From IMG/VR virus record IMGVR_UViG_3300033121_000493, positions 64,001-128,000 of that record: 64,000 nt of DNA, one strand, 5' to 3'. Shown piece by piece: positions 14,840 to 43,463 of this stretch. A model generated the notes under the pieces. That model was given only the letters and a program-made list of their open reading frames with translations, had not been told where the DNA came from and did no database searches. The position numbers were made by a program, and so were the translations under genes. Position 1 is the first letter of the stretch; each line of letters opens with the position of its first letter. This stretch comes from a virus. Its lineage: Duplodnaviria > Caudoviricetes.

Positions 14840-15505
14840 TCATAGCATATCTAAATCCTCATAGCTTGGTTTACGTGCCATAGCTATAACATTTACAATT
14901 TGTTGAATCTGATCTAAGTTGTTGTTGGCAACAGCCTGCGTGTACGCACCGAATAACTCTTCAAATATCTTGCTCTTCTGTTTATAGTTTACATGTAAAC
15001 TTACACCGCACTTAAACAAGCCGCCTAGCTTGTTTTGGCGTTCTTTATCTGGTATTTCGCCTACGTCTATGTTACTGATCGTTTCAATCATCAAACGAGG
15101 CCAGTACAGACGTGAAGCACTGTGATCGTTTTGTGTATAAGCTCCTGAAATCTGCGGCAAGGATTTTATCAGTAGCGCATAAAGCCAAAAAGGATTAAAA
15201 CCAATATAAGGACGTAAAACAACGTATTGCTTATAGCAGTGTTTGTGTTCACCGTCAGGCAAAGTATCGACTATGCCAACACCTAAATTTTTATAGTAAA
15301 ATGGCATTGTTAACGAGAGCACGCCGTATACCAACACTGTATCGTTTAATTTGACATCTAATCTCCCACGCTCACGACTGTCCACAGGGTCATTAGTGTA
15401 CTTAAATCCGTACTTATTAAAGTTTTTAAGGCTTATTGTACGCGAAGTGGGATCATCTACACCTGATCCTGATAATAAAAGTTGGTACAAATGGCCTAGT
15501 TTCAT
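14840..15505 (-). CDS. Half-size type I restriction specificity subunit (HsdS/TRD)-like protein
   Basis: MKLGHL...VVLRP...PFWLYALL...PRL..ETISNIDVGEIPDKERQNKL followed by a helical tail resembles one TRD plus conserved region. Confidence 0.55.
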   Translation of the reverse strand: MKLGHLYQLLLSGSGVDDPTSRTISLKNFNKYGFKYTNDPVDSRERGRLDVKLNDTVLVYGVLSLTMPFYYKNLGVGIVDTLPDGEHKHCYKQYVVLRPYIGFNPFWLYALLIKSLPQISGAYTQNDHSASRLYWPRLMIETISNIDVGEIPDKERQNKLGGLFKCGVSLHVNYKQKSKIFEELFGAYTQAVANNNLDQIQQIVNVIAMARKPSYEDLDML

Positions 15506-16358
15506 TTGTCATCAAAAAATAAGAGACGTACAATATTTAATTGTTTAAACACAGTCCAGTGTGTCACGCTACGCACATTAGTTGCAGGGTTGCGTAACTC
15601 CATTGCGTAGTGTAAAGGTCTGTAGAAACCCATTTGACTACAAATATCCTTTCTCAGTTCACTGACAGTGATGTGTCTAGGCATTTAATAGCAATCTTTT
15701 AACGTCTCAAAAATATATTGTATGTGTGATATGTTGCGTGTACAGCGGCTTAACAAAACAGTATGAATGATTCTGCTATAGGCAAACATACGTTTTAGCC
15801 GTATAATATGGATACTAAAATAAGAACGCGCAAACGACTTAGGATAAATTGAATAATGTAATATATGAGTGAATCGGTGGTGTATGTTAATATGCTTAGA
15901 TTCATGCCATCTACGCGCCACGTTACCTCCTAAGATTAAACCTGGCTAGCTATATAGCATAAAGCGTTTTTGAAATCACTGATTTAATTACATCGGCGCT
16001 TCTGCTGTTAATAATCCCTTGTTGCGCAGAAAATTTTGTAATAACTGAATCAAATTCTTCTGCAAGAACATCAAAATCATAGCATACAGAATTGTTATAT
16101 TGCTTTACCCAGTCTGAACAGCTAAATTGTATAGCGTAACTATTTGCCATATAGAATATGCCCTAACCGCATTCGTACAGCGTTGCCTTGCTCTTCTGCA
16201 TGAACAAAGACCATAGCTTGTGCGGCTGAGTTGTTGAATGCTACGTAGTTATGCCGAAAATGATAGTGTACAAGTGAAATATTACACCAACATTTATATT
16301 TGGTATGCCAGACGATAAACACGCCACCAGATACGCGACAGTTAATCTCACAACTGCG

Positions 16359-16836
16359 ATCAGTCTGTATTGCCATACATGACGTCATCCATTATGGTTA
16401 GTAAGGCGTCCTCCAATACGTCGTAAACATTGCGTACAGCACTGGAATTCCCCCAAAATCTAATACTAAACTTATCCATACGATGTTTATTAATTTTGGC
16501 AATTTCAGTGCTACTTATATCGTCTTCTAAATAATAGCTTATAGCTTTAAAGTTCACACTAAATACGACGCCGCGCGACAAATCAGTCTGCATTGCTATA
16601 CACCACGTCACTGAATACGTTACGTAGCACTGAGTCTAAAGTAGTGCGAATACTACGCGCGGTGCTGTGGCTTGGCACAAGCTTACTGATAAACTTATTA
16701 CAAAAATCATACATGCGGCGTCTGTGAATTTTGACAATTTCAGTGTTATTTATGTCGTCGTCTAGATAGTAGCCTATAGCTTTAAAGCATACGGCAAATA
16801 CGATACTGCGGGATAGATCAGTCTGTATTGCCATAC
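16359..16836. repeat. Three copies of an ~18-20 bp repeat ATCAGTCTG(T/C)ATTGC(C/T)ATAC at ~225-235 bp spacing (recent gene triplication, QTD(L/R)S starts)
   Basis: Seen at about 16359, 16582 and 16817; proteins 16360 and 16583 also share FKAI.YYL.DDI..TEI.KI. Confidence 0.8.
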
Positions 16837-18187
16837 TAGGTGTCCTCTGTTGGGTCGTATAGTGAGCTACGTATTGTATAGCCTATACGCTGTATAACGT
16901 TACCAGTTATCTCCCTGCGAGATCTATTATTTTTTGTTTGCAGCTCTATAAAGGCTGACAACAATTTATTAGGGGTTAAAAGCGAGAATACGTGGCCGTG
17001 TTTGGGCGTATTCGGGAATATTGGAGCGAAAGTTATGAAACTGATATAAACCGCAACTTCAAAGCTAGTCATAATGAAATACAGCCGTACACAGTACTAC
17101 GAAACACATGCAGAGTCTTATCTCTAACGACGTTACATAAATTTCTATTGCGGCTTTGTAAATCTACAAATCTACGCAATAGACTACTAGAAGATAAAGT
17201 AATGCTGTGGCAGCGACGCCGTGTTAATCCGACATTTATTACACCTATATGCGTAGTACCACAGACAAATTCTAATTCAACGCTAACTGTCACAACGGAC
17301 CTCTAGCAGTATGGTTATTAGTTTGTCTAGCTGTATATAGCTAGCCGCAGACCGGTCTCTAATACCAAATACTCTATTTTCCAACTTACACGGCGGTGTA
17401 AATATTTGCCACGATAAAAGCAATTTCTTGTTATTTCTTTCGGCTGATTTAATGTATAGTCTAGTAGAGTATCCGCTAATGTAGATTGGTGTGGCCACGC
17501 TTTACTCAGTAAACCAATTAACCGCTAGCACGGCTAAAATATTCATAAGTCTATTTCTTAAACCCGTAGCTCGTATCGCGTACGTACCTAGTTTGGTACG
17601 CAGTAGGATATCTTCATCGGGCTTTGCGGTTTCTGTTAACCCAATAAAACGAGCTTTTACTCCGTCCCTGTCATCCACGAAAAAGCATAAAGCGTAAACG
17701 TTATTTTTACGCGTAGAATAACCCTCTTGCAAGATAATCGCGCTAGATCTGGTTAATGATTTGTTATTTAACAATGCTACCGCTTCGCGTGATCGCGTAC
17801 GAGCAAACTTGCACTAGGTCATAGCCACGGACAGGTGCTGTGTATCTAAACAAGCGCTTATCCATACATGTAACGAGCCGTAAAATATGCCGAGTACAGC
17901 AGTTGTTACGCGCTATTAGAGCTATCTCATTATTGAATCTACGTTCTGGTAAAAAATCACATGACCTTGATTCGCTACTCACTTAGCGTGGTATCCCCAT
18001 TGAAATGTCGAGCGGTGTACTGGTTCGTAGACACGCATAAGCTCTCTACGTAACGCCCGCAGCATTACTCCTGTCCTTGGGAATCTCATAGGCATACTGT
18101 AACTTTCTGGCGCAAATATATCGAAAACTTCGTTCTGTGAAAGATCATGTGGCGTTAAGTCTCTACTTTCTGCTTGCGTTTGCATAC

Positions 18188-18261
18188 TCGGCGCGACAGG
18201 ACTCGAACCTGCGACCCCCTGGGTGTAAACCAAGTGCTCTAGCCAGCTGAGCTACGCGCCA
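18188..18261 (-). tRNA. tRNA-Val(UAC)
   Basis: Cloverleaf, CTTGG-TTTACAC-CCAGG, GTTCGAGTC; no encoded CCA. Confidence 0.92.
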
Positions 18262-18265
18262 TTAG

Positions 18266-18340
18266 TCTAGGTAACTGGATTCGAACCAGCGGCCTCCTGA
18301 CCCCAAATCAGGCGCTCTAGCCAGACTGAGCTATACCTAG
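18266..18340 (-). tRNA. tRNA-Pro(UGG)
   Basis: CCTGA-TTTGGGG-TCAGG, C1:G72, GTTCGAATC. Confidence 0.93.
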
Positions 18341-18923
18341 ATATCGAAGCACAATACAGCACATGTTGTTAAGCGTATACCTTACGCGACTGTACAGCAG
18401 ACAGTACAGCATCTTCTATCTCATCGCACAAGCTTATTATCATGTCATCCATTGTAGGGCTTATCTTCCAGGACAAGAGCCAATTCAACTTTGGCATTAA
18501 CCTATTTAATGACGCAGTGTGCGCGGCATATACCATTACTATGTCATACGCTCTAACGGTTTCTCGAAGTTGTAAGCTTGCCTGAAACGGGCTAGCATCA
18601 TACGCAAAGCGTACACCGAGACAGTTGTCAGCAGGCAATTACATATCTCCAGCAACCAAGTGAAACCACGTCTAAGATAAACCGCCGCACAGCCACCATA
18701 TAAAAACAGCAATTGTAATTATCATTATAGCTATAAGTGCGTCAGCACATTTTGCCGCTAGACGATTATTACGCTCATCGTCTGTCACGGGATGTTATCC
18801 TTGTGATCCAAAAATATCAATTCCAAATATCCCCAACTGGACATTTATGATTTCTCTGATCAGATAGTACCAGAAATCCGGCATAGGGTGCGTTTGCATT
18901 TGTGTCTCCTTACGCGTAGCGCG

Positions 18924-19100
18924 CTACCGCTTTGGAAAACGGCGAATTCCAAAAACATGTGTATGCAATTTATCAACGACAGAGTCAATCTTAGTTTTGT
19001 CTTGAGTATCGTAGTTACCGTTAGCAATATCGCTCTGAATCTTAGCCACCATTGCTCGGCGAGTCACCAGTACGTCTGACATACGCACATCGCGTTTCAT
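18924..19100 (-). CDS. FlgM-like (anti-sigma-28 C-terminal domain-like) 58 aa protein, absent from the ORF track
   Basis: AAGGAG RBS; MKRDVRMSDVLVTRRAMVAKIQSDIANGNYDTQDKTKIDSVVDKLHTHVFGIRRFPKR matches the R..V..I...I..G.Y pattern. Confidence 0.55.
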   Translation of the reverse strand: MKRDVRMSDVLVTRRAMVAKIQSDIANGNYDTQDKTKIDSVVDKLHTHVFGIRRFPKR

Positions 19101-19112
19101 ACTGACTCCTTT

Positions 19113-19595
19113 TTACAGATAACTGCTGTCTTGCCCGCGTTTGCGCTGCTGCAGTTTGACAATTTCAAGCATCAATTCTGCAATTTCATCGGCTGACAAC
19201 TTATCAATAGCTTCCAAAATACCGGCAGCGGCAGTCTTGCATTCCGCAGACCTGCACGTCTCTTCAGTTGAGTTTAGCAAATTACTAACTACATTACCAA
19301 GTGTAGAAAAGCAAGTTTTGTACTCGCTGTCACCTTCAATAGTAAATGTCCACTCGATACCTTTGTTTGTTACTTTGCCTACAGCGGCCTTCAAGTCGAT
19401 GCTGGATATGAACATTACTACTGCGCCACAAGGTAGCTCAACTGGCTTTCGCGTGTCCAGGAATCTACCTTCAAAGTCAAACCCTGTCTTTGCCGGAAGC
19501 TTAACGGCAGTGATATGCCGGTAGTAGTATTTATGAAGACCTTTACCCATGATATTTTGGGCATACGGACAAGGGTCAAGTTGGATTTTCGGCAC
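19113..19595 (-). CDS. Hypothetical protein
   Basis: 160 aa ORF. Confidence 0.6.
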   Translation of the reverse strand: MPKIQLDPCPYAQNIMGKGLHKYYYRHITAVKLPAKTGFDFEGRFLDTRKPVELPCGAVVMFISSIDLKAAVGKVTNKGIEWTFTIEGDSEYKTCFSTLGNVVSNLLNSTEETCRSAECKTAAAGILEAIDKLSADEIAELMLEIVKLQQRKRGQDSSYL

Positions 19596-20133
19596 AGGTT
19601 TAGCCTTTTGTCTTGGGCTTTGTGTGTTTTTTGCGTGGACGTACTGTCATATAGGTACTGACGTTAGGCGAGAACTGGCGTAGCTTGTCGTTCACAATAT
19701 GATCCATTGATTGAGTATTCATACGCATATGAATAGACCTAGACATACCGCCAGCATACGAAAAATGCATTAGATCACTTATTTTTATGGCTATCGCAAA
19801 CGATATATCCTTGGCAATAAAAATTGGTATAGAATAATAGTCGGCATAGCTACATCTACTTAGGGCAGAACGCAGATAGTGAGGGACGTTACTCACGACT
19901 GAATAGCCCAGGATATTCGAATTTACACCAAACCTTAAACAGTTGCCTGTGCATAGTACTAATTACATGTGCCCTACGGCGAGATGTTAATTGCTTATTT
20001 ATATCCATCACCCGATAAACATTCAGTTGCACTTGAATCGATGTTTGTTTGGCAGCAGGACCGTCGATAGCTGCTTTAATGACATCCACTTCGTACGCTG
20101 TGTGCTGTAGATAATAGGGAACTATAGCGGAGC

Positions 20134-20547
20134 TCACTGGCCACTAGACTCTTCATACGTTTTTTTACGCTGCTGCAATTTTTGCATTAATAGTGGCCCA
20201 ATAACTTCCCAATCTGCGCCAGGTCTAGCGCCGAGTCTGGGCAGTTCTCTCAAAGGACAACCTACGGCAGCATCGTCCACGTACAGGTTAGCAAATGCTT
20301 TAGGGCTGCTTGACCAGCTCTGTTGCGGGTTTTTGTTAACGCCCCACAGCTGGATACCGTTAGCCTCACACCATTTGACTGCGTCATCTAGTTCTTTACC
20401 AGAGCGCATAGTCCACAGGATTAACTTCGCACCGGCTGTTTGTAGCTTCACGCACCACTCAACAGCGCCCGGTATAGCTGCGCCGATATCTGGATAAACG
20501 TGGTCAACCAGCGTGCCGTCAAAATCAATAGCAACTATGAACTGCAT
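20134..20547 (-). CDS. HAD-superfamily hydrolase (small, capless type)
   Basis: AIDFDGTL, ILWTMR, K.FANLYVDD. Confidence 0.88.
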   Translation of the reverse strand: MQFIVAIDFDGTLVDHVYPDIGAAIPGAVEWCVKLQTAGAKLILWTMRSGKELDDAVKWCEANGIQLWGVNKNPQQSWSSSPKAFANLYVDDAAVGCPLRELPRLGARPGADWEVIGPLLMQKLQQRKKTYEESSGQ

Positions 20548-20606
20548 TCGACATCTCCGTGTGGCGCGTTGTAGAAATTTACTAGACTAGAATACATTGT
20601 GTAGCC

Positions 20607-21083
20607 CGCCGTAAAATGCGACCTAACGTTATGTTTAAGGGAAGATAGGTAGTACTATATTGCGTATCCACAGGTTGCACGAATTCTTGATAGAGGGGTA
20701 CACGGTGTATTGATGCGTGTGATGTGTAATACTTATGTAACACCTCGCCGCTTATCTCGGTCACGTAGATCGCTACTTCATAACTTTTGCTGGGCTTTGT
20801 CCTCATGAGTTACCTCTGGTGTACTCAACTTAGCAATGCTACGCCGTAAAACGTGACCTAACGTTCTGTTTAAAGGAAGATAGGTATTACTATACCGCGT
20901 CCCTGTAGGCGATGCTATGTTTGGGCAGACGCGTATATAGTAGATTATTATGTCCGATATCTCGTGTAGATACCATGTAATTTCGCCTACATTGGTCACG
21001 TAGATTGCTATTTCATAACTTTTGCTGGGCATTGTCCCCATGAGTTGCCTCTGGTGTACTCAACTTAGCAACGATACGCCGTG
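20607..21083. repeat. Recent tandem duplication of array units (20582/20778/21013)
   Basis: ~85 bp near-identical junction ACGTAGAT.GCTA.TTCATAACTTTTGCTGGGC.TTGTCC.CATGAGTT.CCTCTGGTGTACTCAACTTAGCAA at about 20763 and 20998. Confidence 0.85.
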
Positions 21084-24000
21084 TAATAGTGAACATTAAA
21101 GGTGCGTATAACTGATCTATCCGCATACGAACAGCACTACGCCAATCCCACGACGTTATAATCCTACATGCAAATGATCGATTGGCAAATCGGCTCTTAA
21201 CGACGGCTGCAGGTACGTGGCTTGAATCGTATATTACAAAAACGAGACTATCGCTTAGCACCTAGGTACCTTGCAACCTTAGTCCATAACCTGTATGTGG
21301 CGTTTGATAATCTACTGGCTATTGGTGTACCTGTCCTAACGTTGCCTATTGCACATAGGTGCTCGAATGATGTACCCAATACAATACCAATTAATATACA
21401 GTCATTATTAGTACTGCTAATGGTCGCTGAACCGCTAGAGTAGTAGAAGACATTAAACACTACCCCACGTGAGTTAGACGACTTAGTCAAGTTTACGTTT
21501 GAACCCCTTTTTTACACGCAGTTCGAGCCTGTATAGCGTTGGTAATAGCAAGTCGCGCGTAGAGCTGTTAAGTGAATTATGACGATACAACTTTGAAAAA
21601 GAGTATGCGGCAGCAACATGTACTGCGATTGACTTAGAGTTACTATACTTACGCATATATCTGTTAACCGGAGCAAATGCCAATACGTTGAACTCAACTC
21701 CTTTGGATTTCATCGAAATCTGGCTATAAGCAATTGGCAGCTATATAGTATAATAGTATTCGCTCTAAACGCCATACGCAACGTACGACCTATAACCCGT
21801 GAGTACATTGGTACCACAGCTGGCGTATCACAAAACGATACCCAATATTCTACGATTCGGCAAGCTGGATAGTCTTCTTTACCTGTGCTACGCTCTCCTG
21901 CAGCAGCGAAAAATTTAACACATAGACTAGCGTGAGGCACAGTGCAATATCCCCGCACATACGGATACAATACAAGCACTTGCGTTATTAACTATAGTTA
22001 ATATATTCCACGCCGCTAAGCTATGGCCGTCGCCATCAAACCCATGAGCTAGCGAACACGATATAATCCACACATGTTTATTGCGGATTACTAATACAAC
22101 ACCAGTATTAGGCTCTTCAGTCCAGTTATCTCGTACCGCCGCTCGTATTTCTAAAGTATTAGCTGCGCAGCTCGTCAATAGCACTCCCGTTTCTAAACTC
22201 ATACCTCAAATAGTCTATTAGTCGTATGACTAGCCGCCTGTAGCCGCTATATACATTTATCGAAACATCGCTAAATATAAAATTTGTTGGATAGTAGGCT
22301 ATAGCGTACACGACGCCAGTAGTTTGCCAATACCAAGTATGTATTGGGCTAACACTATCACCGATTCTTTGATATCGTACGCGGAATTGAACTGTTAACG
22401 ATTTACTATGCACGGCCACACTACGGTTGTATAGATAGCTTTTAGGACATTTAGCAACAATAAATATTGATTATGCCATTGCCGGTCAGCTGCGATCTGT
22501 ATATTTGTTTGCCGGTACCAGTTAGATTTCAAAATCGGATTTACGTCTACCAAAATGTCATAATTTTTATTAACTGTTATAAACAATAACACGCGCATAT
22601 ACGGGCAAAAACCAAACACAACTACGCGCGACTTTCTCAATGTGACCAGCCCCGTCTCGTACCAGTATAGACGTCTTCCATAACCCGTAATTCTTGCCAA
22701 CGCCACTCTTGCTTATCAATTGTAAACTGTACCCACCTGGACATATACAAAGTAAACACTTTAACTGGAGTTGCACGTGTCCTAACGGTACCATCCACAT
22801 TAGTTACTTTAATCATATCAACAGCATAATTATATCCATTAAGTTCAAATACGATTGGCTGTGATTTTACCAATTTAACACTACGCTATCATGCGCACGA
22901 GTCATACAGTCATTAAGCAAATTTCTACTAGCTACGAACCATTGGAAACTAAGCACCCGGTAATATACTGATACGTCATCTACGACGAGTATTGGCTTAA
23001 AGCTCAGCTCACAGTATTCATCGCTTAGTTCGCTGTACTGACCAACTTTTAGGATAACTCTGTGTACAGGCTTAAAAACAACCAGCGGTACAAATATTAC
23101 GCTGAGTGACTTATTCATTCCTTATCGTTTTCTATTAAACGATATACGATTTACACCACGCCGCACCAGGCGCTTAGCCAGCCAACGCATAGACGCAGCG
23201 CACATGTCCACAAAGAAAAATAGTGTGGCGCAGTTAAACACGAATGACGTAAAACCAGAGTAGGACAGCACGTACGACGCTAGAAAAAAACCAAGGCCTA
23301 GCACAACAAGCGCGGTTACATACTCACAGTCATGCATTTGCGGCTCCATAGACGGGGCAAGCTACGCCGGTTGCAATAGCTAAGGATAAACGATGAAACA
23401 AAGCCAAAGGAAACATAGGTAAATTGCAAAAACACGGCTTAAGTAGAGCGTATGTATAGTTAAAGCGAAATACGCGGGCATAGCTACAAGAATGACGTCC
23501 GGAGGCGTCACCCCAGCGTAAGCTAAACGTTACGTCGAGAGATTTATCTACCGGCATAACGAGATGCGCAATAGCCTAAGCCATGTTTTATTCTCTACAA
23601 TGAAATAAGGCGATCCTCTTACGACAATCTTCATATCAAACATGCTAAGACTTACTGTATTAAGTAAACACACTAGGTATCTATGGTCACTCCCATGAAA
23701 TGGGTAACCTGTTTTAGAAATTGTCGACGGGGAGGCGCGGTGCACATTAGGTATATCAAACTTAATCTCTTTACTGTGCATCTGACAGGCTGTCTGATTC
23801 AATAAAAGATCTACAAAGTTTTTTCACTGTAATAACAACTACATAATACACACGGCGCGTGACCAATGTAAAACTAGCAAAAAGCGAGCCCATAGACACT
23901 TTCTCCCAGAGTAAATGGTAACCACCGCTTACAACTGCACTACGGAATTTAGAATTAGACATCAAACACTCCGGCAGCCATGCATTTTTCACGAAGTATT

Positions 24001-24215
24001 TTATACTGACTATATATTGTGTTTTCAACGCGCGCTTGAACATGGTGTCTTGTGATGTAAACTCTGTCTGGCGCGTGTATATCGCACAGATTTAACGGTA
24101 AAATTCGCCAAGTGTTAGAAAAAACTAGACCGTCAGGTACTACTAGCATGGTTTGCAATTCGTGTAGTTTTAGATCAAACCGTAGAGAGAACCCAACACC
24201 ACAGCACTTAGGCAT

Positions 24216-24855
24216 TTATCCCATACCATTCGTCATGTGCCATAAAATATTATGACACTCGTCAAATAATGATATAAGGTTACGGGTCACAATGTTTAAG
24301 CGAATAGTGCTGTACGTAAGAACCTTTACATCAATCCAGAAGCTGCCAGTGCGTGGATCAGGATCACACGCTACTGCAGCGCCAACATATGAATACCCAA
24401 GGACGATGTATATCTCTTGATTACAAAACTTAGCCATTCGTCATGCGCCATAAAATATTATGACACTCGTCAAATAATGGTCTATAGTTACGGGTCACAA
24501 TGTTTAAGCGAATAGCGTTGTACGGAAGAACCCTTACATCAATCCAAAGGACGCCAGTGCGTGGATCAGGACCGCATACTACTCCAGCACGGCCAACATA
24601 TGAATACGCAAGGACGGCGTATATCTCTTGACTATAAAACCTAGCCATTCGTCATAAACCGTATAGCGGCGTTACACTTACGGACTACTAGACTATTGTT
24701 ACGGTCCGCAATGTCTAAGCGGGCAGAGAAACAATAAGACTTAAATAAACGCACATCAATCCATAGGCAGCCAATGTCCGGCGTGCAGCCAAAGTCCACT
24801 GTAGCATCATTAGAGCCTATAACGGTAATGGCTATCTCTTGACTCTTAATGAGCT
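24216..24855. repeat. Tandem triplication of an array unit (two near-identical copies plus one diverged copy)
   Basis: 24216-24437 and 24430-24648 align end to end; third copy at ~24641-24855 reads IKSQEIAITV...WIDVR...MTNG*. Confidence 0.85.
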
Positions 24856-27800
24856 TCTCCTAACGACTTTGTCAATAGGCGAATATAGCGTCCAAGTGTC
24901 CTGGTAATAGGCGAAAATTCATTAAAAGCCCAATCCCAGTCAAACATATTATTTGCGCGTATACAGTTCCGTACAATATGAAATATGCCTAATGAACAGT
25001 CATCCCACGAATATACGCTACCATTAAACCCCAAACCACCACCATGCTGAGTATATGTGGCACCGCCAACGTTAAGCATAATTTCACAACTGGTAAATGA
25101 TGGCAATCAGCCTCCTAGCTGCCATTCTAGCGAGTGGAATTACATCTCTATACGTGTGTGGAGTAATATTCATACCAAATCTAATATCTAACGTGCGAAC
25201 TATAGGCCTTACGTCAATGATGTATAGACTATCGTCGTAAGAGGCTGTCGCTAATGACAATACGCGCGGCGCTGTAATCGTAGGGTACAGCGTACATGTA
25301 ACCTCACACGACTTAAAATTTGTCACTAATCTGCTTCCACACGTCTATGAAAACACTACTACAAGTATCTACGTTATCCGGTCGTATGAATCTTGTTTGT
25401 AAATCACTCCAACAAACAAGCTCTAGCTGTACAAAGTAACTATCGATATAGTAACCGCGCCAGGTGTGTACTACTCGCACCCATCGTTCTGTAGAAGCAT
25501 ATAGCCGCCGTACGGCGATATCACGACTAGACCCGTCAGCCATATAGCTGTCCAGTATTACGGAATTGGATACGACAAGCGGCAGAAGACATATGTGCTG
25601 CTATTGCCCTACCATAAAAATCGGCAAACAAATTACTAAACGCTATACATTGTAACGAGACAAGTAGTGCCGGTGGCGCTGTACGGTAGATGTCAACAAT
25701 CGGTGGCCGTATAGTACAATCATCCTCTGGCTCTGATACTAACATTTGTATTCGTAGCACAAGGCTACAAAATTTATTTCCAGCGTCTGGTTGCACCCAC
25801 CAAGCCCCAAAAAAGGATTCGATCAAGAATACTACGAAAGCTTGCACTCAGTGGTGCGTTGTCAAACAAATCACTTCTAGTCATATACTCCATAGCTATA
25901 TACATTCTTTCTTCGTTGTCGTGACTGCGATCACGCTTTACAAAAAAACTATTATTAGCGGCCCTAACAGCGTAACTGCGGCATTTATGCATAAAGTTTA
26001 AGCCACATAGCCTTTGTTACCCTGCCACACAACATAGTAACAGTAGGCGTTATCGCCTCGGGTAGATCTTCATCAAAGAAGACATCGACGACTGTGCGCC
26101 GTCCTATTAAAATGGTCTTTGTGGCAAAAGGATGTGCCTGCCAAAGAGCAACTGCGGGCTGATCAATACGGTGTACTTCCAGTATCAATGCAGTAACGTC
26201 ACAACTAGGGTTAAAGCTCAAGGCTCCCCTCGTATATGCGTCTCAATATGATACATAGTGAGTTCTCGGTGCGGATAGGACGGTTGTTAATTAGAGATCT
26301 TGGGGATGGTACACAATAAACCACACAGAACACGCCTAGTATCAAGGTTTTGTGTTCGTATTTGTATACGCCTACAGTATCGTCAGAGGCGAAGCCTGAT
26401 CTAGTATATATTGCGACGCCGTGTTAACATTCTTTTTAGTAAAATCTCTATCATATATTCTGTCATAGTCAGGAGGTGTGGGACTGGTCGCCACTTAGAA
26501 TTTGAAACGCATATTTCAATTGCCACATACTTGAAATCCATATTCACGTAAAAATAGCACTGGCGTCTATTACGCTCTGCGCCGTCATTTTTGTATATGA
26601 GGTCGTGGTATACGTCTACACATAAACTAGTTTTACGAGCTCTGCGGCTGCGCAAATAGTCTTCCAGTGTTTTCGTCGCCGTATTGTTCTCCCGGCTGCA
26701 GCAGGTGCTTAGCGGTGAGGCCGTAAAGTCACGTACGCACAATCACATACTTTACTAGCTACACGTCCTACGGCAATCATAACATTTAATGAGGCGATGG
26801 GTTTCAAAAGAAAACCACCGCGTAGATGATTCATTTTAATTACTACATTATCTCTAGTTGCTTGTGCGTAAGTAAAATACGCACCACGAACCATCTCCCG
26901 CCACTCAGCTGTGCTAACAGTACGCCAATCGACTGGAAAAACAATATCAACGCCTACGCTACGTTCATAGCACAAAAGGGTTTAGTCCTTTGATAGGATA
27001 CACCGCTTTACACTGTCTAGTACAGCACGCTCAGGCTGCAGCGACTCAATCAGATAGTTGCGTACAATTTCGCGAAATAGCGTAAAGCGATTGGGTATGT
27101 CTATAGCTGTTATTTCAATATAAAAAATAGCATTCAGTGGGGTGAGATGCACCGCTGTTGTAGTCACCGAGGTAACACAACGTACTCTATGTATATAGAC
27201 AGGTGTTGCTTTTTCAAACGGTCGTTTAGATAAATATGCACGTAGTCTTTTTATACTAGTCATCGGCAACTAAGAAAATTGTTTAAACAATAGTCTGTGC
27301 TATCTAATACCGCGATACACCGCCTTCTTATCAAGTGGTTAATTTGCCGCAAATAACTAGGCCTTGTGCCGCCACCTACACAACAATGTAGTCTAATCGT
27401 TATTTCGCCAAACACGCTTACGTCTCCGATGCATGCTGTAGCCGGATATGGTAGCCACGCGCTGTATACCACGTCTATTGGACCAACTTTTCTAGGTGTA
27501 GATAAAAAATTTTTTAGTTGCGGTGTTTGCATCAATTTCTTTTTGGCTGTTTTAAGCACTGTAAAGCAGATTTTGCTACATCAGCACATACAGAGCGTAG
27601 CCTATTTGTAATCCGCCGCGCGACGCTAACCCTGACAAAGTTGACACCCGTCCAGCGTAGCTTGATTACGAACACTTGTCGAAGCATATATACGCGCGTA
27701 GAACTAGTGTCCGCATAAGTTATGGAATTGTTTAATTCTTGCGAAGCACTTATTTCGATAGACTCTCTGTGCACAGGCTGAAAAGATTTTAATGCTGGTG

Positions 27801-28325
27801 ATTGCATCAATCGTGTCTGTAGTCCCGCAAACATCGATACATACTTTCTATTATGTCTCCGCATAAATTATGTATGTAACGTGTATATGAAACCGTCGAC
27901 GAATAGTAGTAATCGTTTATGCAGTATAACGTAATTTCTATCCTGGTATTATACGGGTCTATAGTACCGACGCATCCATTATTTTTGCATTCTCGTAACG
28001 TCGGACGAACAGTATAGGCGATGTCTATCACTAACGATTTTTTCCACTGCGGATTAGACATATAGCGCTTTAATGCCAGCGTTTGCATTACTCTTCTTAC
28101 AACTCGTAGAAGTCGGGGTCTATACGTTTTACTAAATTTCGGCACCAAGTGCGTAAAGTACTCATAGCCTGTCGATTCCTGGACCGTAAAATGTAACGAT
28201 CCAAACAGTATAGCTTAATTATTAATCTACTGCTACGAAATCCGTCTATATCGCCAATACACGAAAACCGAATATCCCTACGCGCAGACTCGCAGATAAC
28301 CTGTATATCCCAAGACTTTTTGCCA

Positions 28326-31300
28326 TTAGCCCTGTAGTATTTTAATTCTGGTGTCTGCGTTTATTTCTCCACGTCTGAACGCCGCTATAGCGTCCGCTTT
28401 GGTAGCAAATGTTTTTGCTTCATGTGCGCTTTGATCGTGAGTAGCCCTAAATAGCCCGTGCAAAAATTCCTGGATAGGTGCATAGTGCACGTCAAAATTT
28501 CTAGCACTGAGTAAATTAGCGCTAGGCATAAGCTTACGCTTAGCTTCACTGACAGCTTCATCACTGACAGGCACGTGGAACTGCATTCTGTCACCGTCGA
28601 AATCAGCGCCGTAGCCACTGACGATTGTAGGGCTTAGCTGCATGGTTTGCGTTTTAGCCAACACAGGCCACGCAGCCATTATTCCGAACTTGTGTAGCGT
28701 AGGAGCTCGGTTGATGAGTACCGGACGCACTTTCATTTCTTCAATCAAAGCGTCCTTAGCAATTCTATCTTTGTTGGCAACCATATTAACAGCCTGTACG
28801 GCAGGAGTACCCCGTCTGACCAACGACCTAATGATAAATGGTCGGTATAGAGTCCATGCTTTCTCTTCTGGCAAACCTACTTGATCCATGTCTAGCGACG
28901 GGTTTGGCGTAATAACAGCGCTACCGACCATGTCAGTTGTGCTGCCTATGATCTTACGCTGAAACACTGAAAACTTTGGCGACGACCGCAGTCCTAGCGC
29001 ATGCGACAAAATGCCTTTTATGTTCTTCTCTTGTAACTTTGGCTGCAGCGGATCTGACAATCCGACCAGTGCCTTGAACGAGCTGTACAACGCTAAACGC
29101 TCGTCACCTGCGGCTTCGTGGCCTAACGTATCTGTTACGTCCTTTACGTTGTTGTTAGCACGTATGATCTCTTTGTACAAGTAGTTAGGGTCACTAACTA
29201 TTGTCATACCTTTAGGCCCAGTTGCGATAGGCCGATACTGAGGCGGCATAATAGGTACTTTAGTCAGCATCAGCTCTTCTGGCTTAATGCCTGTTTTCTT
29301 TAGCATTGTAAAAACGCGCAACCGCTTAATAGCGTCGTCGCGGTTTGTTTTTGATCCATTAGTGACTAGATCTTTTAGTCGATCAATCTCGCTGTGTACG
29401 TTGAGAGACTGTAGCGCGCTACGCAATGCTTCCGGCCCTGTCTTTTCTTTAAGCATGCGTTTACCGGCTATAACATCTTCCAACTGACCTTCAGTAAGCC
29501 CCAGCACTTTACGGATAGAATCTTCGAAAACAGGATTTGGTAATGGGTGATTAAGATTAACGTGCGTAAACCCTGTCCCTTCAGGACCACCAGTTAAACC
29601 TATATCAAACAACCCACCACTTATCGGCTTCATCGTATCGAAATCAAGAGTATCGTCGCTCTTGACTTCGCCTCTAGACATCTTGTCTATGTCTTTATCA
29701 GTCAAAGCCATGATGTTTACGAAGTTACCGGTCTTGCTAACATTGATGCCAGCAGACCTTAAATCGTCCATAAACTTCTTGTACACGAATGGTGCTTCTG
29801 GTGTTGGCGGCGGATACCCCAAACGAAACGCACGCCAGAAATCGTCATTTCGCTGCCCGCGTATGAGCTTAGCATCACGCAGTACTTCAGTAGCACCAGC
29901 AGACAATAATGACATTGTCTCTAGCCCACCTATACGCTTGGCAGAGCCTTCACCACCTTTAGCAGGAACTTTGTCAATAGTGTATGAACCGTCGTCTGCA
30001 CGAGCGTCGGCTTTGTCTTCTGCAGTATGGTGTAGTTTCATCCAGTACTGCACGCCAGACAACACATTATTCACATTAGCGTTTCTATTTGGATCAAATA
30101 GAGTTTCAGTATCCTTTATGCCGTATTTCTTTAGCTCGTCCTGTACAGTCTTTAGATTACTTCCATCTTGGAAAGACGGTACAACATATTTTTTACCTAA
30201 CTTAGCTGCTACCTTACCAAGCGCGAGCTCAAGTATGGCCGCAGGGTTAGATCGAGAGATAGTACCAAACGGATGGATTAGCAACTCTAGCGGATTTTTA
30301 TCACTATCGTGCGGCATTTGATCATCAGGTACTATTGATGAAATAACACCTTTACCGCCGAAGCGCATCGTTAGCTTATCACCAACCACACATGGTCGGT
30401 ACGCTTTTACGATAACGTTTACATCTTTTGGTCCGGCATGTACATCTGTAACTATTCCGTCGTCATCGTATTCCCACACGTGCGACGAATCCATAAATCT
30501 AGCTTTGCTACTGCGCGTTAATACGCCTTGACCCTTAGCAGATTTTTCAGAAATACTAAGAATCAGGGGATCACCCTTCTTCACAACAGTTCCTGGTTTG
30601 ATTAAACCGTTGTCTGTAAAGTTCGCTAGCTGAGCTTTATTGTACGTTGTAGGAAACGCGCTGATAAATGCATTCCTACTAACTTTCTGCCCAGGCTCAA
30701 TGTCCATTGAATGCTGGTACATATGCTCAGACGCCATTTTCTTAGCGGCGCTCTCGCTAACAACAATGGCATCTTCTACGGTAAGACCTTTGAACGGTAA
30801 GTAAGCAGTGCGTAAATTTTTGCCTAACGCCAACTCACCTTCGTCATTTGTGAAATTTGTTTTAGCCAGTAACTGGCCAGGTTTGACATAGTCACCTGGC
30901 TTTACCATAGGTGTATTGTTTACAAACCCACGTCGATTATACGGAAAATTATCGTACAGTTCGTAGCGTTTAATGCCGTTGGGAGTTTTGATACTGATGC
31001 TATCTTTATCCAACTTAGTAACTATTCCAGTTGCATCAGATCTGACTATGCCAGTTTTGCTGCCTAAGAATCTTTCAAAAGAATCATTAGGCTCACCAGA
31101 TGGCCTGCTTGTCTGAACAAACGGTGCTTCGCCGTCTTTGATCGCTAGAGCTTGCGTTGCCATTCTGGCTACCATGTTAGTTCTGTGGCCCTTGATGGAC
31201 GACAGAAACGGCACAAGGTGCGCCAACGTAGACATCATGTGCTCTGGATGCGGGAGCTCGTAGTCAACTTTGCTTGGATCTACGTACTTAATGCGACCGC

Positions 31301-32717
31301 GTACTAATGCTTGTGCCGGTCTATTCTCAGCTATAGCTTTTTTCAACTCACCTGGAAAAGCAATAACGGATCTAGTCGCATCCGTAGATGGTACAAAGAT
31401 CTTTTTGCCGGTCTTATCCAAAAACTGTGAGTACAGTTTACCGTCACTACCACGGTGAACGTTGTACGCAGTTCTATTGTCTACACCGGCTTTCTCAGAT
31501 TCTGCTGTACGAACTACGTCGATGAAACCCATATACGAAGGCTGCACGGCACGTGACTCGTCAGGAATAGCGTCTGTATCTGGAATACCACCATAGCCAA
31601 GTCGAGACACACGCTGCAACTGATCATAGATGTCTAGAGGATTTGATTCCTCCAGCGGCATACCAAGACCGGAACTAAGCAGAACAGATTCCAATTGTTT
31701 GTTACGTTGCTGGTGATTAAGTATAGGATTAAGTGACCTGGCGTATGTAGCTTTCCACAGAGCTCGTCTAGCCACACCACCAACGTCAGCTTTAATACGC
31801 TCAGCCAGCATCTCTGCCGGACCAATCACCTTCTGATACGAGATGTTGTCACGGTCATCTGTATCCATTTCACCTTTACGAATCTTCAGCAACTTATGTG
31901 TAGCGGCCAGTATTGCCTGCGGGCTAACCGTATCGAAGCGTGTACCAAGAGTTTCCTCTGTAATATTGGGGTCTAGCTTCATAGCAGCCATAGCTTTAGC
32001 TATAGCCGTAGGCTTGCTTTTCTCGTCGTCTAGCTTGTCACCAAATTCTTTTCTAATAGCATAATCAGTAAACTTCTCGTACGCTTTAGCGATAGCCGGT
32101 TTATTAGCTTGCGTAGCGTTTGCCGCTAATAGATCTCTACCCCATATAGCTGATAACTCTTTATCTGACACGCCAAGCCCACGTAATAGTGGGTATAACG
32201 CAAACTTAGACTGACCTACTTTAACGTCAAACACACCTGTCTCTGGTTCCATAAACACACGAAAGGACGGACCAGACCCAGGCATAATGTTGAAGTGCGA
32301 TTCTAGTTCGCCGTTTTCTTTTTTGCGCGTATACACACCAGGTAACAGTCGTGCCTGGTGCGACAGCGTGTATTCATTACCACGGTAAATAAACGTACCG
32401 CGCTGTGTCATCTGCGGTATATCAGCAATCTTTGCACGCCGCTGTTCTACTACAGAATTGTCGGCTACGTTACTTAGCCGCCACGTACCATGTAACGGTC
32501 GCGTTAATGACTTACCTGTTAATATAGCCTTACGCTGTGCGGTAATAGGCGATACTTCTGTAGGATCGTCATATCCGACATCGGCTAACTCTAGTTTATA
32601 TTGGCTGTTGGTTATTGGATACGCGCTAGCGTACGCATTTTTGACGTTGTCATAAATGCTACTGCGCAGATAATCCACATCATCAAAAGCATGAATAGAC
32701 GGCTTACTGATATCCAC
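28326..32717 (-). CDS. rpoBC: DNA-directed RNA polymerase, fused beta + beta'-N subunit
   Basis: beta motifs GTFIYRG, GELALGKN, EDAIV, GDKLTMRFGGKG, SRSN, KLHH, KRIGGLE; beta' motifs VLINRAPTLH and catalytic GADFDGD; start reassigned to GTG 32717 (GGAG RBS), since the 32804 extension overlaps a terminator. Confidence 0.93.
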   Translation of the reverse strand: MDISKPSIHAFDDVDYLRSSIYDNVKNAYASAYPITNSQYKLELADVGYDDPTEVSPITAQRKAILTGKSLTRPLHGTWRLSNVADNSVVEQRRAKIADIPQMTQRGTFIYRGNEYTLSHQARLLPGVYTRKKENGELESHFNIMPGSGPSFRVFMEPETGVFDVKVGQSKFALYPLLRGLGVSDKELSAIWGRDLLAANATQANKPAIAKAYEKFTDYAIRKEFGDKLDDEKSKPTAIAKAMAAMKLDPNITEETLGTRFDTVSPQAILAATHKLLKIRKGEMDTDDRDNISYQKVIGPAEMLAERIKADVGGVARRALWKATYARSLNPILNHQQRNKQLESVLLSSGLGMPLEESNPLDIYDQLQRVSRLGYGGIPDTDAIPDESRAVQPSYMGFIDVVRTAESEKAGVDNRTAYNVHRGSDGKLYSQFLDKTGKKIFVPSTDATRSVIAFPGELKKAIAENRPAQALVRGRIKYVDPSKVDYELPHPEHMMSTLAHLVPFLSSIKGHRTNMVARMATQALAIKDGEAPFVQTSRPSGEPNDSFERFLGSKTGIVRSDATGIVTKLDKDSISIKTPNGIKRYELYDNFPYNRRGFVNNTPMVKPGDYVKPGQLLAKTNFTNDEGELALGKNLRTAYLPFKGLTVEDAIVVSESAAKKMASEHMYQHSMDIEPGQKVSRNAFISAFPTTYNKAQLANFTDNGLIKPGTVVKKGDPLILSISEKSAKGQGVLTRSSKARFMDSSHVWEYDDDGIVTDVHAGPKDVNVIVKAYRPCVVGDKLTMRFGGKGVISSIVPDDQMPHDSDKNPLELLIHPFGTISRSNPAAILELALGKVAAKLGKKYVVPSFQDGSNLKTVQDELKKYGIKDTETLFDPNRNANVNNVLSGVQYWMKLHHTAEDKADARADDGSYTIDKVPAKGGEGSAKRIGGLETMSLLSAGATEVLRDAKLIRGQRNDDFWRAFRLGYPPPTPEAPFVYKKFMDDLRSAGINVSKTGNFVNIMALTDKDIDKMSRGEVKSDDTLDFDTMKPISGGLFDIGLTGGPEGTGFTHVNLNHPLPNPVFEDSIRKVLGLTEGQLEDVIAGKRMLKEKTGPEALRSALQSLNVHSEIDRLKDLVTNGSKTNRDDAIKRLRVFTMLKKTGIKPEELMLTKVPIMPPQYRPIATGPKGMTIVSDPNYLYKEIIRANNNVKDVTDTLGHEAAGDERLALYSSFKALVGLSDPLQPKLQEKNIKGILSHALGLRSSPKFSVFQRKIIGSTTDMVGSAVITPNPSLDMDQVGLPEEKAWTLYRPFIIRSLVRRGTPAVQAVNMVANKDRIAKDALIEEMKVRPVLINRAPTLHKFGIMAAWPVLAKTQTMQLSPTIVSGYGADFDGDRMQFHVPVSDEAVSEAKRKLMPSANLLSARNFDVHYAPIQEFLHGLFRATHDQSAHEAKTFATKADAIAAFRRGEINADTRIKILQG

Positions 32718-32757
32718 AATAGTATCTCCGTAGCTATACAGAAATAGAAGTATACAA

Positions 32758-32796
32758 TAAAAAACCGCCGCCAGCAATATGCCAATCGGCGGTTTG
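32758..32796 (-). terminator. Intrinsic terminator upstream of the RNAP gene
   Basis: AAACCGCCG...CGGCGGTTT inverted repeat followed by a T-run on the minus strand. Confidence 0.55.
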
Positions 32797-32830
32797 GCGA
32801 CCAAACGCCAGTAAGCCCGAGTAATTTAGA

Positions 32831-37298: not shown

Positions 37299-40200
37299 CT
37301 ATATAACCTTTATATCCGCGTCACGTAGCGCGGTTTGAAGTTCAAAGTTGCTGCTGTACTTAGCCATGAAAAATTCCAGAGTAGCAAGCACAGATGAAAC
37401 GTAGTCCGAGCTTTCACCTCTACGTTCTAGGGCAAGCTTTTCACGAACAAGTAGGGCTTTACTTACACTTAGCGCTTGAGTTAGCCCAAGGCTATTCTGT
37501 TTTTGCACAGTCACCATACGTCAGTTTCGTCTTTCTTAGTACGTCCTCGAACCAATTTCGTAATGATAGCAGTGCTGTCATGTACGGATATCGCCAGAAC
37601 ATATCAACATACAGCGCGCGACCCATGTCCCATACGCCGTGTATCATTATGGTTTCACGTATGTGCACACGTGCTGTTAGGGTCAAACTATCCGTAAAAT
37701 TACTGCCAGCCATAATACAGTGTAATCCGAACCAAGCAACAGATTGCTCTGCTCTTACCTCTATCTCGTAAGATCTATTCGTAGACATGATAACCTGTAT
37801 TAGCCAAAGCGATTGCGGCTTCGCGTTTAGTCATGCGATAATTCCATACTTTCCGACGTTAGCCTTAGCAAGTCATGTAACCATTGATACAATACTCGCG
37901 TACTCCTATACCGGTCATCCGACAAGCTATAATTGATTTTTTTATAGTCAAACATCGGTATCGCGATTGTTCGCGTAGGTTGGCTAATTCTGCTAACGCC
38001 TAAGTGCGCGGCACAGAATAGCACTACACGCACTTCCCGACCGTTATATGCTTTAATGCTGTTAGCTATTTGGCTACGCGTAAAATACTCCTCACTGGCC
38101 AAGTATGTCCTCTAGATTAGCATTCAGTGCCTGTAGCGCGCTACCAGGATTTATCTGTATGCCGCACCGCTCTAGTGTTTGCACCAAATGGCTTAACTGC
38201 ACTTCAGTACCGTCATACATACATTTGGCTAGGTCTAGCAGTGCGTCAAATTCGTTAATCGACATTACCACACGCTGTGCGTTGGCTGGTGTAAGTGTAA
38301 GCGGTCTATTTTTAGCGTCAACAATAGTTTCCGTAGCCGCGTCGTAGCGTAGGGGTAAAACAAAATCGATATCCATTTTTCACCGTTGGGTTAGGCTTAG
38401 CTACAATTCAATTCTTAGAAACAGTTGCGTCATTTTACGGTACACGTAAGAATATGCCATACTTGCTTTGCGTGTGTAAGCCAAGCATGGGTAGCCGTAA
38501 GCAGAATAAAGCTGAACCATTATTTCTCGATAAACTGCTCTTGGACCAAAATGTGCCACACGCATATTTACGCTATCATATAAAAAACCATCTAACTGTA
38601 TACAAAACTCTACATCGCGAGAATATGTGCTTAATTTGCGCGTCAAAATTAACCTTTATGTTTCGGTAAAACGGATGGTATAAGACCAGCCAGGCGCAAA
38701 ACTTTTTTTAACGTACGGGTCACAAGTATATTTGGCTGCGTAGCGTAGGGTGGTCTACTAAGTAGCGACTCCTGTGAAAAGAATTTACGGTACGTATTAT
38801 GGTGTAATTTATGTCGTATTATTACGTGCCACCACACGGGACGTACAAAGTCGTGCTTGTTTACGCGAAAAATTAGACGCGATAACTCAATGTCTATGAT
38901 TGGTCTAAACGATATATCGCCGCTATGTTTACTGCGTTTGTGCATCAAGACTATACAACCCAGTCACCAGGCCACGCACGTAGCTCTTTTTTAGTTTTCG
39001 GCTGTAAATCTCTAATCATACCTTCCCATTCAAACAGGTACAGCCGAGTATATGTTAACCTACAACCTGTTTTGGTATTAACGGCTTCGTCAAAATAATC
39101 AAACGTACCGCAATCCCTAAACACGCGTACTTCAAAGTCACCAACTTTGTATTTTGCTGACATTACCTCGAAAGACAGGCGCTGAGGAAGGATATTACCT
39201 AATTTTACGTCTATAAGCGTGCGAATAAACTCAAGTAGAGTTCGCTGTATCTGTTTTGGTGACTGCTTCGAGACTCGCTTCATCGCTGGCCTGCGCTTCA
39301 ATCGGAATGACGCATATCATAAAAGTTTTGCCAGCAGGCAACCCATCTACTATATCACTACCGATATTACCTATTGTGTTATTTACTGAACGTATGACTT
39401 TAAACTCTGGGTCTATGTAGTACTTATGCGGACCTTTAAGCGCAGCTTCCAACTCATCAATCATTGGTTGAAAAATTGAATTTGTCTGTTGCCCAGCGGC
39501 GTACTTTAGATAGCTAATAGCCGTCATTACAGTTTCAACGTTTATATGGCGTGCCACGGTTCGTTTTCTCCTTTAAAGTATGGGTGTTCAATATGGCCTG
39601 CGCCACTGATAAAACCACCAACTGCAACGCACATCCAGCCAGGAACAACGCATCGCGCAGTATGTCAGTATAGGCGTATACAAACGTAGCCGTGCTACAA
39701 GCAACGTGCTTTGTTACTGGATCTCGATATAGTTCGCCGTAATGATCTGCATACAAAGCCATTGCCGTATCGCCAGCATGCGTAAGCTGTATGTAGTGCG
39801 TGGGTTCTAATAGTAAACCAAACGGCACAAATAGAATAGGACAACTTGACGCAGATATCTCTGTACGGCATAAATTGTTAAAGTTAAAAATTACTACCGC
39901 GCCTTTCACTCTACCGCCAGTTTATCGATGCTATACGTCATTGCCGCGAGTATTTGCAGATTAAAACTACGAATATCGAACTTTATGAGTGCTAAATAGA
40001 ACGCCTGATGAATGGTTGCTACACGCGTAATAGCATTAACACACACGCTATACGTTGAATAATGGCTAAGGTCATGCGAAAATACTATTTCATTAGATTG
40101 ATTTTTTTTAAACCAAAGTTTTGGGTTAGCCATTTACAGCATTCTCTTTGATTTTCCTCATTGCAGCCTCAACACTGGACACACACTCAAGGTACGCGGC

Positions 40201-40633
40201 ATGTAAATCTGGCTTTATTAGATCAGGCTTTAGTCTTTCTTCCATTACTTCTAGCCTATATCGTACGCTCTCTAACTCTGAAACAAAGCTATTATTAGCG
40301 TGACGAGCCATAGCAGCGTCTCTGTCGCGTCTATTGGCGTAAATTTCGATGCTAGATATTGAATAACGTTTGGAAAAAGACACGTATATATTAGACATAT
40401 CAGGAGGTGGACTAAACATACTCGGTTTTATTGGACGCGCCTCTACAGTTTTATCGTTAAGATGAGTGTGTGTTACTATCGCGGTATATGGTACAACTGC
40501 GCCACTGGAGTATTTGTAAAACACGTAAATTGGCATGCCTATGACTATACGCACACCATCAACAGTCATAAGTTTGTTAGTAGTATTTTTACGAAGAAAA
40601 GACCGTCTAATAAGTCACCTGTAGTTTGCAAAA

Positions 40634-40665
40634 AAAAATGATTAGCTGATTAGCTAATCATTTTT
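40634..40665. terminator. Probable bidirectional intrinsic terminator
   Basis: AAAAATGATTAGC-TGATTA-GCTAATCATTTTT perfect 13-bp inverted repeat with A/T tails. Confidence 0.65.
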
Positions 40666-40688
40666 GAGTTCATTGATACAGACCAAGA

Positions 40689-41603: not shown

Positions 41604-42010
41604 GCAGAACCCCCTTTGGCGAGATTATACGTAACAACACACAGACTAAGAAATATTAACCCGTCAGGTGATCTGTAACCTAAATCTTTCGTTAATACTA
41701 ATTAGGCGGCTGTCCATGAGAGCTACCCAACGCGCAATTCTAGTGCTGTTAAAGTAAGTTATCGCCCTAGTCTGGTGGCTACCAAAATATCCTAGGCGGT
41801 CTATATACACCGCCTCAGATTCAAATTTGTGCTCGTGCCGGTATACCGTATAGCATAGATGAAATGTATAGTTAAATTCGCTTACTCGGATCGGGTAGAC
41901 TATCACGGCAGTCGTCTTGTCCACATTTTGTAAATCATCCGCATGGTAACTAGCATCCACAACGCAAAAATAATGTAATACACCATAGATATGAGCTCCG
42001 TTAAATGTAG

Positions 42011-42084
42011 TGCGACCGGTGGGATTCGAACCCACAACGACTGGTTCCTAAGACCAGCGCCTCTGCCAGTTGGGCTACGGTCAC
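42011..42084 (-). tRNA. tRNA-Leu(UAG), short variable loop
   Basis: CTGGT-CTTAGGA-ACCAG, 5-nt variable loop, A73. Confidence 0.88.
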
Positions 42085-43460: not shown

Positions 43461-43463
43461 ATA

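Follow-up and report, generated by a model that had tools for sequence, protein, structure and literature searches.

Does a long run of very small phage genes represent a set of unrelated acquisitions, as the small ORFan runs that are common in large phages are usually treated, or a single family that has grown in place? This question is raised by a locus of an uncultivated tailed phage (Duplodnaviria; Caudoviricetes), which has been analysed here within a stretch of 64,000 nucleotides (the window, to which all coordinates refer unless stated otherwise), corresponding to bases 64001–128000 of the IMG/VR record IMGVR_UViG_3300033121_000493, a single virus record of 202,582 bp that is 100% complete by CheckV. 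Between 15502 and 28148 on the minus strand, ∼47 small open reading frames (ORFs) of 52–113 aa tile ∼12.6 kb, mostly with overlapping or abutting stops and starts. A preliminary description of this array, made from the letters alone, had proposed one small fold amplified into a repertoire of microproteins with a common N-terminal motif, for example a library of anti-defence binders or of adaptors, and it has proved half right: the array is a duplication-driven, phage-specific microgene family with conserved termini, whereas a single shared fold and a use as binders or adaptors are not established.

The density of the array is far from what the local nucleotide composition would produce. Counting ORFs of 60 aa or more within 15502–28326, there are 49 on the minus strand, which occupy 90.3% of its length, but just 8 on the plus strand, with a coverage of 15.5%, and 300 first-order Markov resamples have yielded 8.0 ± 2.7 (maximum 17) with a coverage of 13.7%. 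The stop-to-stop spacing has a median of 232 bp (interquartile range 217–263) and the ORF length a median of 82 aa. With the longest starts used, 40 of the 49 junctions show an overlap or a gap within 6 nt, the typical junction being an ATGA- or GTGA-type overlap of 4–14 nt, so that the ∼45 consecutive ORFs, the ∼220–280 bp period and the overlapping or abutting stops of the preliminary description have all been recovered. Regarding the coding signal, a codon model trained on the long genes of this phage has given −0.058 per codon for the array, clearly above decoy ORFs at −0.14 to −0.16 (Mann–Whitney p = 5e-6), and the frequency of T at third positions (0.341) is close to that of large genes (0.337). 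A Shine–Dalgarno core precedes 22–28% of the array ORFs, compared with 30–37% of large genes and 3–16% of decoys. Selection in the called frame has also been detected, as the ratio of non-synonymous to synonymous change (pN/pS) amounts to 0.46 (p = 0.001) for A2/A3 of paralogue cluster A (16140–16834, with members at 16140–16388, 16360–16611 and 16583–16834 and N-termini of the form MAIQTD[LR]S-x-x-[VI]), or 0.27 when only its first 30 codons are counted, and to 0.60 (p = 0.003) for a pair of cluster D (27260/27532/27807). Judged from these substitution patterns, the older paralogue pairs are under purifying selection. By several independent signals the array ORFs look like real genes, though their coding signal is weak, and a description as translated-looking genes is supported.

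How these genes have arisen is visible from the distribution of similarity along the array. BLAST and profile searches within the genome have resolved three clear clusters, namely A, B (20582–21261, with members at 20582–20806, 20778–21041 and 21013–21261) and C (24216–24850, with members at 24216–24437, 24430–24648 and 24641–24850), and the profiles of these clusters reach no other array member. Smith–Waterman scores over all non-cluster pairs show a slight shift (23.6 compared with 23.0, p = 2e-4), and the tail of this distribution contributes the neighbour groups D, E (16836–17293, a weak pair of 16836–17072 and 17069–17293 with a score of 47) and F (21248–21713, a weak pair of 21248–21490 and 21483–21713, which carry the motif as SRGVVFNV and SKGVEFNV). 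A score of at least 35 is reached by 11 of 44 neighbour pairs (25%) and by 1.8% of pairs at least six genes apart (p = 9e-4). As similarity is thus much more frequent between adjacent genes than between those far apart, repeated tandem duplication is indicated as the generating process. The identity of neighbour pairs extends from 75% at the amino-acid level down to marginal, in keeping with the earlier claim that every stage of divergence is present.

The repeat units of 208–235 nt comprise one gene each, and the youngest of them have accumulated changes freely. C1 and C2 of cluster C, at 75% amino-acid identity, differ by 4 synonymous and 21 non-synonymous changes (pN/pS 1.47); the conserved ends of B1/B2 have given 0.96, and a young pair outside the window 1.55. 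None of these values is significantly above 1, and on these counts the youngest duplicates are without detectable purifying selection. An independent assembly of the same phage (Logan contig L004 of SRR32380191) ends at 24268, inside the C1/C2 duplicates, and the repeat is therefore real enough to disrupt short-read assembly. B1 and B2 form a mosaic pair, in which DNA identity amounts to 83–92% over the first 17 codons and over codons 47–66, whereas the 30 codons in the middle, despite a gapless alignment, share 43%, with 47% at third positions. Since the middle has diverged at third positions too, selection on the protein alone cannot explain the pattern. It rather suggests that units have exchanged sequence by recombination or gene conversion, for which the conserved ends would act as homology arms. 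In cluster B, two successive gene junctions are spanned by a 99-nt repeat of 89% identity, and in cluster A a 32-nt junction word recurs at three successive boundaries. Within cluster C, the third copy (24641–24850) has an open frame with KSQEIAITV and no ATG, GTG or TTG start. Its candidate start is non-canonical and coupled, namely an ATT that follows AGGAG at a 6-nt spacer and shares bases with the TAA of the preceding gene (ATTAA), which would fit termination–reinitiation along the chain.

What has been retained during this divergence is most evident at the N-terminus. A loose motif, S..[VI].[FVYAC], has been found within the first 20 aa of 20 of the 47 array ORFs, compared with 3.2 ± 1.7 in shuffles (maximum 10 in 1000 shuffles), and the stricter S-x-[EDSG]-[VI]-x-[FV] of the preliminary description in 9 of 47 against 0.33. 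The enrichment of that motif over shuffles is confirmed, and it extends to flanking columns that had not been selected for: K/R at −1 (16/42, p = 1e-5), D/E at +2 (15/42, p = 1e-6) and I/V/L at +7 (24/42, p = 2e-6), an enrichment seen only in N-terminal matches of small tiling ORFs and absent from decoy frames, large proteins and internal matches. With these columns, the motif is wider than first reported and reads [KR]-S-x-[DE]-[VI]-x-F-x-[IVL], the pattern of an amphipathic strand. Its serine is encoded by AGY in 18 and by TCN in 24 cases with no shared DNA word around it, and the conservation consequently operates at the protein level and does not reflect a DNA repeat. A Gibbs sampler applied to the N-terminal 30 residues has reached 9.82 bits compared with 8.66 ± 0.19 in shuffles. 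On stop-to-stop frames, a 9-column matrix has matched ∼25 times in the array, a count that is optimistic because the matrix was trained on the array sequences themselves, while 3.6% of plus-strand decoys pass the same threshold. A 14-column N-terminal position-specific scoring matrix was too noisy, and a full-length 16-residue Gibbs motif, which blended N- and C-terminal patterns, was not used. Altogether, the motif lies near the N-terminus in ∼20–25 of 47 array ORFs and in ∼3 in shuffles. Elsewhere in the genome the loose form occurs in 22 of 129 other small ORFs and 7 of 147 large proteins, and in the Vibrio phage D181 it stays at baseline (9 of 176 small ORFs, 50 of 639 decoy frames). Six small ORFs with the loose motif lie at window-equivalent ∼129.9–133.0 kb, beyond the window from which the motif was first described, and provide a modest independent replication.

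The second conserved element is located at the opposite end. In 67% of the array ORFs the strongest helical hydrophobic moment falls into the last third of the protein, compared with 29–31% in shuffles and decoys, and the mean maximum helical moment is 0.563 in the array against 0.459 in shuffles and 0.413 in decoys. A MAFFT alignment of 36 members aligns an arginine-started helix with a recurring C-x-x-[VI]-[LF]-x-x-[VM]-[YW] pattern. The C-terminal net positive charge is only marginally higher than in shuffles, so that of the basic amphipathic C-terminal helix claimed at the outset the amphipathic helix stands, while its basic character is marginal. At the N-terminus, beta-type hydrophobic moments are no higher or lower than in shuffles, and a beta-rich middle, also claimed, finds support neither in the hydrophobic moments nor in structure prediction. 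AlphaFold2 has been run with the family alignment on two members. For 16583–16834 the predicted local distance difference test (pLDDT) is 67.5, with helices at residues 38–52 and 56–79 and an unstructured N-terminal half; for 22637–22873 it is 73.4 (43 to 73 across five models), with strands at 7–11, which is the motif, and at 14–18, and a long helix at 35–70 with a pLDDT of 85–93. A Foldseek comparison of the better model with PDB and BFVD has returned nothing at E 0.001 or better. A protein-level N-terminal motif and a C-terminal amphipathic helix as features common to roughly half to two thirds of the members are supported by the sequence statistics.

No relative of the family has been encountered beyond this phage. 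Pfam has yielded 0 matching families over the 36 members, ribbon-helix-helix proteins included, and PHROG one marginal match (E 0.005) over the same set. Only the proteins of the window itself have been recovered by a word-indexed search of 5.8 billion proteins, with a single member as well as with the 36-member alignment, and by an exhaustive profile search of 1.84 billion representatives. The initial impression that no described family matches has consequently held, and as far as can be seen from such searches, the family is confined to this phage. Approaching the locus through its neighbour, the RNA polymerase gene upstream of the array, has led to no related locus in IMG/VR. Among metagenome contigs, a 3-kb fragment (FUIF01016102.1) with 65% identity to the polymerase and a contig end with 33% have been retrieved, neither of which spans the array, although the fragment indicates that a related phage exists, and the region around the RNA polymerase gene of Salmonella phage Arash is not syntenic with the array region. 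The same phage is present in several public assemblies at 99.98–100% identity, which leaves no population variation to use; samples that contain it include those behind SRR32380191, SRR6747781, ERZ28655916 and ERZ724532.

Taking these observations together, we consider the chances about even that the array represents a multigene family specific to this lineage, whose translated microproteins serve as an expandable host-interaction repertoire; the gene-family part of this reading is much more secure than the host-interaction part. Downstream of the RNA polymerase gene, microproteins of ∼80 aa would be encoded one after another in the same direction, as a long chain with coupled translation, and the array would grow by tandem duplication of one-gene units of ∼210–235 bp. 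New copies would diverge without detectable purifying selection, recombination or gene conversion between units would generate mosaics, and surviving copies would later come under purifying selection. An N-terminal amphipathic beta-strand with the wider motif and a long C-terminal amphipathic helix would be kept, while the segment between them varies. The conserved ends could then provide a common scaffold or contact and the variable part the specificity, and the whole could act as an expandable repertoire for host interaction, in takeover or counter-defence, like the multigene families of large DNA viruses. By that analogy, a host-interaction role of the family is probable. A bolder form of this proposal, which we regard as doubtful, sees a diversified phage repertoire with a constant part, in which strand and helix serve as scaffold or as a handle for docking or targeting, and with a hypervariable middle that tandem duplication and recombination between units keep renewing. 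This would amount to a genomic "library" of binders against those host targets that vary, defence systems for example, and would follow the same logic as the antigen or effector gene families of eukaryotic parasites.

Several observations weigh against the repertoire reading. In the codon model, other small genes (0.003) and mid-sized genes (0.073) score higher than the array. The encoded proteins contain much R (8.6%), C (3.0%) and Y (5.2%) but little G (3.8%), E (3.1%) and D, and their composition is at a distance of 4.5 to a random translation of the local nucleotides and of 7.3 to the large proteins of the phage; in Vibrio phage D181, a distant relative, the composition of small proteins is ordinary. 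About half of the array members are without the motif. A leave-one-cluster-out family hidden Markov model has placed held-out members at a median rank of ∼65 among 505 and has brought 9 of the 36 into the top 20, against an expectation of 1.4, a real but weak signal to which properties that distinguish any real protein from a decoy could contribute. The two AlphaFold2 models agree only in their helical C-terminal half and differ in N-terminal halves of low confidence, and an ESM Atlas model of 16583–16834 is of low confidence (pLDDT 0.56), with uninformative feature and structure neighbours. Considering these models, the held-out ranks and the cluster profiles that reach no other member, the original claim of one fold for all members is only partly supported. 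Furthermore, a megablast of the region against GenBank phages has given no match, and neither this nor the polymerase searches have produced a diverged phage in which the region is present; the link of the array to host takeover or counter-defence is drawn from analogy.

Some of the same features are what the main rival explanation would predict, which we consider unlikely: the array might be a translationally coupled chain of largely unconstrained proto-proteins with little protein function, whose ORFs stay open since a stop or frameshift would break termination–reinitiation or expose the RNA downstream. Most products would then be near-random, and the conserved termini would reflect constraints on the stop/start junctions and not a common role of the proteins. 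The overlap or abutment at 40 of 49 junctions with a Shine–Dalgarno core in only 22–28%, the near-random composition, the pN/pS of ∼1 in young copies, the 99-nt repeat conserved across a junction, the copy with an ATT start overlapping the upstream TAA, and the low ESM and AlphaFold confidence all agree with such a chain. Junction constraints do not, however, account for a motif that lies 3–12 codons inside the gene, is conserved as a protein sequence although its serine uses codons of either family, and has enriched flanking K/R, D/E and I/V/L columns, nor for purifying selection over whole genes in the older pairs, and on general grounds a phage would be expected to shed 12 kb of pure filler. 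Going one step further, the region might contain no genes at all, its ORFs being incidental to non-coding or decaying DNA. While the weak codon bias, the odd composition and the missing homologues in the databases searched would suit this explanation, it is strongly disfavoured and very improbable, as ORF number and coverage are ∼6-fold above chance and on one strand only, Shine–Dalgarno cores are about as frequent as in real genes, purifying selection acts in the called frame, and a protein motif recurs at a specific position.

An alternative that accepts functional products assigns the N-terminal element a different task: the proteins might be cargo with a shared targeting tag into the virion or another phage machine, delivered with the DNA against host defences. 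It is attractive in that the family-wide conservation comprises only a ∼9-residue N-terminal element in otherwise unrelated proteins, and the S-x-[DE] part presumably bears some likeness to prohead-protease cleavage motifs. We nevertheless regard it as improbable: only 36% of the motifs have D/E at +2, the motif in the structural model resembles a core beta-strand rather than a cleavable leader, and the array adjoins RNA polymerase, tRNA and nucleotide-metabolism genes instead of a virion module. Compared with these alternatives, the expandable repertoire of translated microproteins is the reading that we prefer.

The array is not entirely uniform, and it is set in a genome with related features. 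A tRNA-Val(UAC) and a tRNA-Pro(UGG) gene are embedded in it (18188–18340, minus strand), and the 5′ part of ORF 17979–18233 (minus strand) is translated tRNA-Val (18188–18261), so that any real gene there must start further downstream. Also embedded on the minus strand are a 160-aa ORF without a family match (19113–19595) and a HAD-like hydrolase gene of 137 aa (20134–20547; phrog_1238, E 2e-28). The member at 23122–23349 lacks the motif and, read by eye, has a long hydrophobic stretch and a basic tail, which makes a membrane microprotein likely. Longer members of 95–113 aa, cluster D among them, occupy 26401–28148 and have an extra N-terminal helix-like segment, LMQxPxLKxF, before the strand motif. 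The additional small minus-strand ORFs that had been announced beyond the array are present at 37.3–46.2, 50.7–51.4 and 56.0–56.9 kb, some with the motif: a second zone (37299–46194), broken by larger genes and a tRNA-Leu gene, includes motif-bearing ORFs at 37492, 38401, 38649, 39906, 42089, 45634 and 45943; three ORFs of 73–95 aa lie at 50733–51405; and of three more at 56043–56894, the one at 56332–56580 carries SLAVKF. The array makes up ∼6% of the genome, a share that becomes larger when the other small-ORF zones are added.

The gene that immediately precedes the array (28326–32804, likewise minus strand) encodes a fused beta/beta′-like phage RNA polymerase of 1492 aa, with an identity of ∼31% to proteins from Salmonella phage Arash and the Vibrio phages D181, D148 and D69. 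A 934-aa ORF at 6030–8834 (minus strand) matches RNA_pol_Rpb1_5 and faintly Hint/Hom_end_hint, and possibly encodes another subunit of an RNA polymerase, interrupted by an intein-like insert. Most large genes of the phage are without a PHROG match, indicating a poorly sampled lineage. The minus strand carries nearly all long ORFs, and 11–12 tRNA genes are found within the window. The AT skew of the plus strand is positive (+0.09 to +0.10) at 22001–26000 and also at 44–46 kb, while the rest of the window is mostly negative; the coding strand of the array is T-rich. Outside the window, a second tandem family at genome 133529–135637 (window-equivalent 69529–71637) consists of six adjacent paralogues of 108–133 aa with CxxC pairs and a TLPYLL-like tail, which are 24–39% identical to each other. 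A further dense zone at genome 190–200 kb (window-equivalent 126–136 kb) comprises ∼29 small ORFs, six with the N-terminal motif, and holds a paralogue trio at window-equivalent 128170–128873, from which the young pair with a pN/pS of 1.55 derives. Tandem gene amplification seems to be a general tendency of this phage genome.

A sizeable share of the genome has apparently arisen from one ongoing process of in-place duplication, recombination and very fast divergence. The scale is unusual, and this one genome displays all stages from birth to divergence, through which a short protein motif has survived. If the products are functional, the locus would be a compact system for studying how phages make new small proteins, in which a minimal conserved handle carries a variable specificity. 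If they are mostly non-functional, it would be a clear case of ORFs held open by translational coupling and a possible nursery for new genes.

Among known systems, the T4 internal proteins IPI–IPIII are polymorphic small proteins with a common N-terminal capsid-targeting sequence, and like the array they combine one short N-terminal element with otherwise unrelated sequences. T4 has only a handful of such genes compared with ∼47 in the array, and in place of the conserved protease cleavage residue of a T4-type tag, D/E at +2 is found in 15 of 42 motifs. The T4-type prohead protease PF03420 has no match in the genome, which is uninformative as the control genomes have none either. Diversity-generating retroelements likewise place a variable segment between conserved flanks of a phage protein. 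They have been ruled out, because no reverse transcriptase (PF00078) has been found in the 100%-complete record and no template/variable repeat pair exists among the array repeats; the divergence seen in the middle of B1/B2 (43% identity) is also far beyond their adenine-specific mutagenesis. In the hyperplastic regions of T4-type phages, ORFan early genes are shuffled via promoter/stem-loop (PeSL) cassettes (PMC2839356, PMC4122927). The array shares with them the long co-directional runs of small phage-specific genes between conserved modules, and the gene-boundary repeats that flank diverged gene bodies and permit recombination. It differs from them in that many of its genes are mutual paralogues with common protein motifs, and its boundary repeats are coding (C-terminus plus N-terminus) instead of promoter/stem-loop cassettes, for which the overlapping or abutting genes leave no room. 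A PeSL-type promoter/terminator signature is absent, with sigma-70-like promoters (39 compared with 44.7 in shuffles) and terminators (15 compared with 15.2) at shuffle level, though the consensus may not be that of this phage. The word TTCGTAAAAATA, exact at 40584–40595 and 42758–42769 (minus strand) in intergenic gaps upstream of genes, is a possible candidate for a promoter element of this phage; with 19 matches against 9.7 ± 3.2 expected and one shuffle reaching 19, it is not significantly enriched overall.

The closest parallel in terms of process is offered by the multigene families or "genomic accordions" of large DNA viruses, i.e., the multigene families (MGF) of African swine fever virus and the amplification of host-range genes in poxviruses. 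As in the array, one gene unit is amplified in tandem, similarity decays with distance, and young copies are under relaxed or positive selection. In contrast to these families, the array belongs to a bacteriophage and encodes microproteins of ∼80 aa whose link to host range would be one of analogy, and its divergence has been so fast that only ∼9 N-terminal residues and a helix pattern remain as the common mark of its members.

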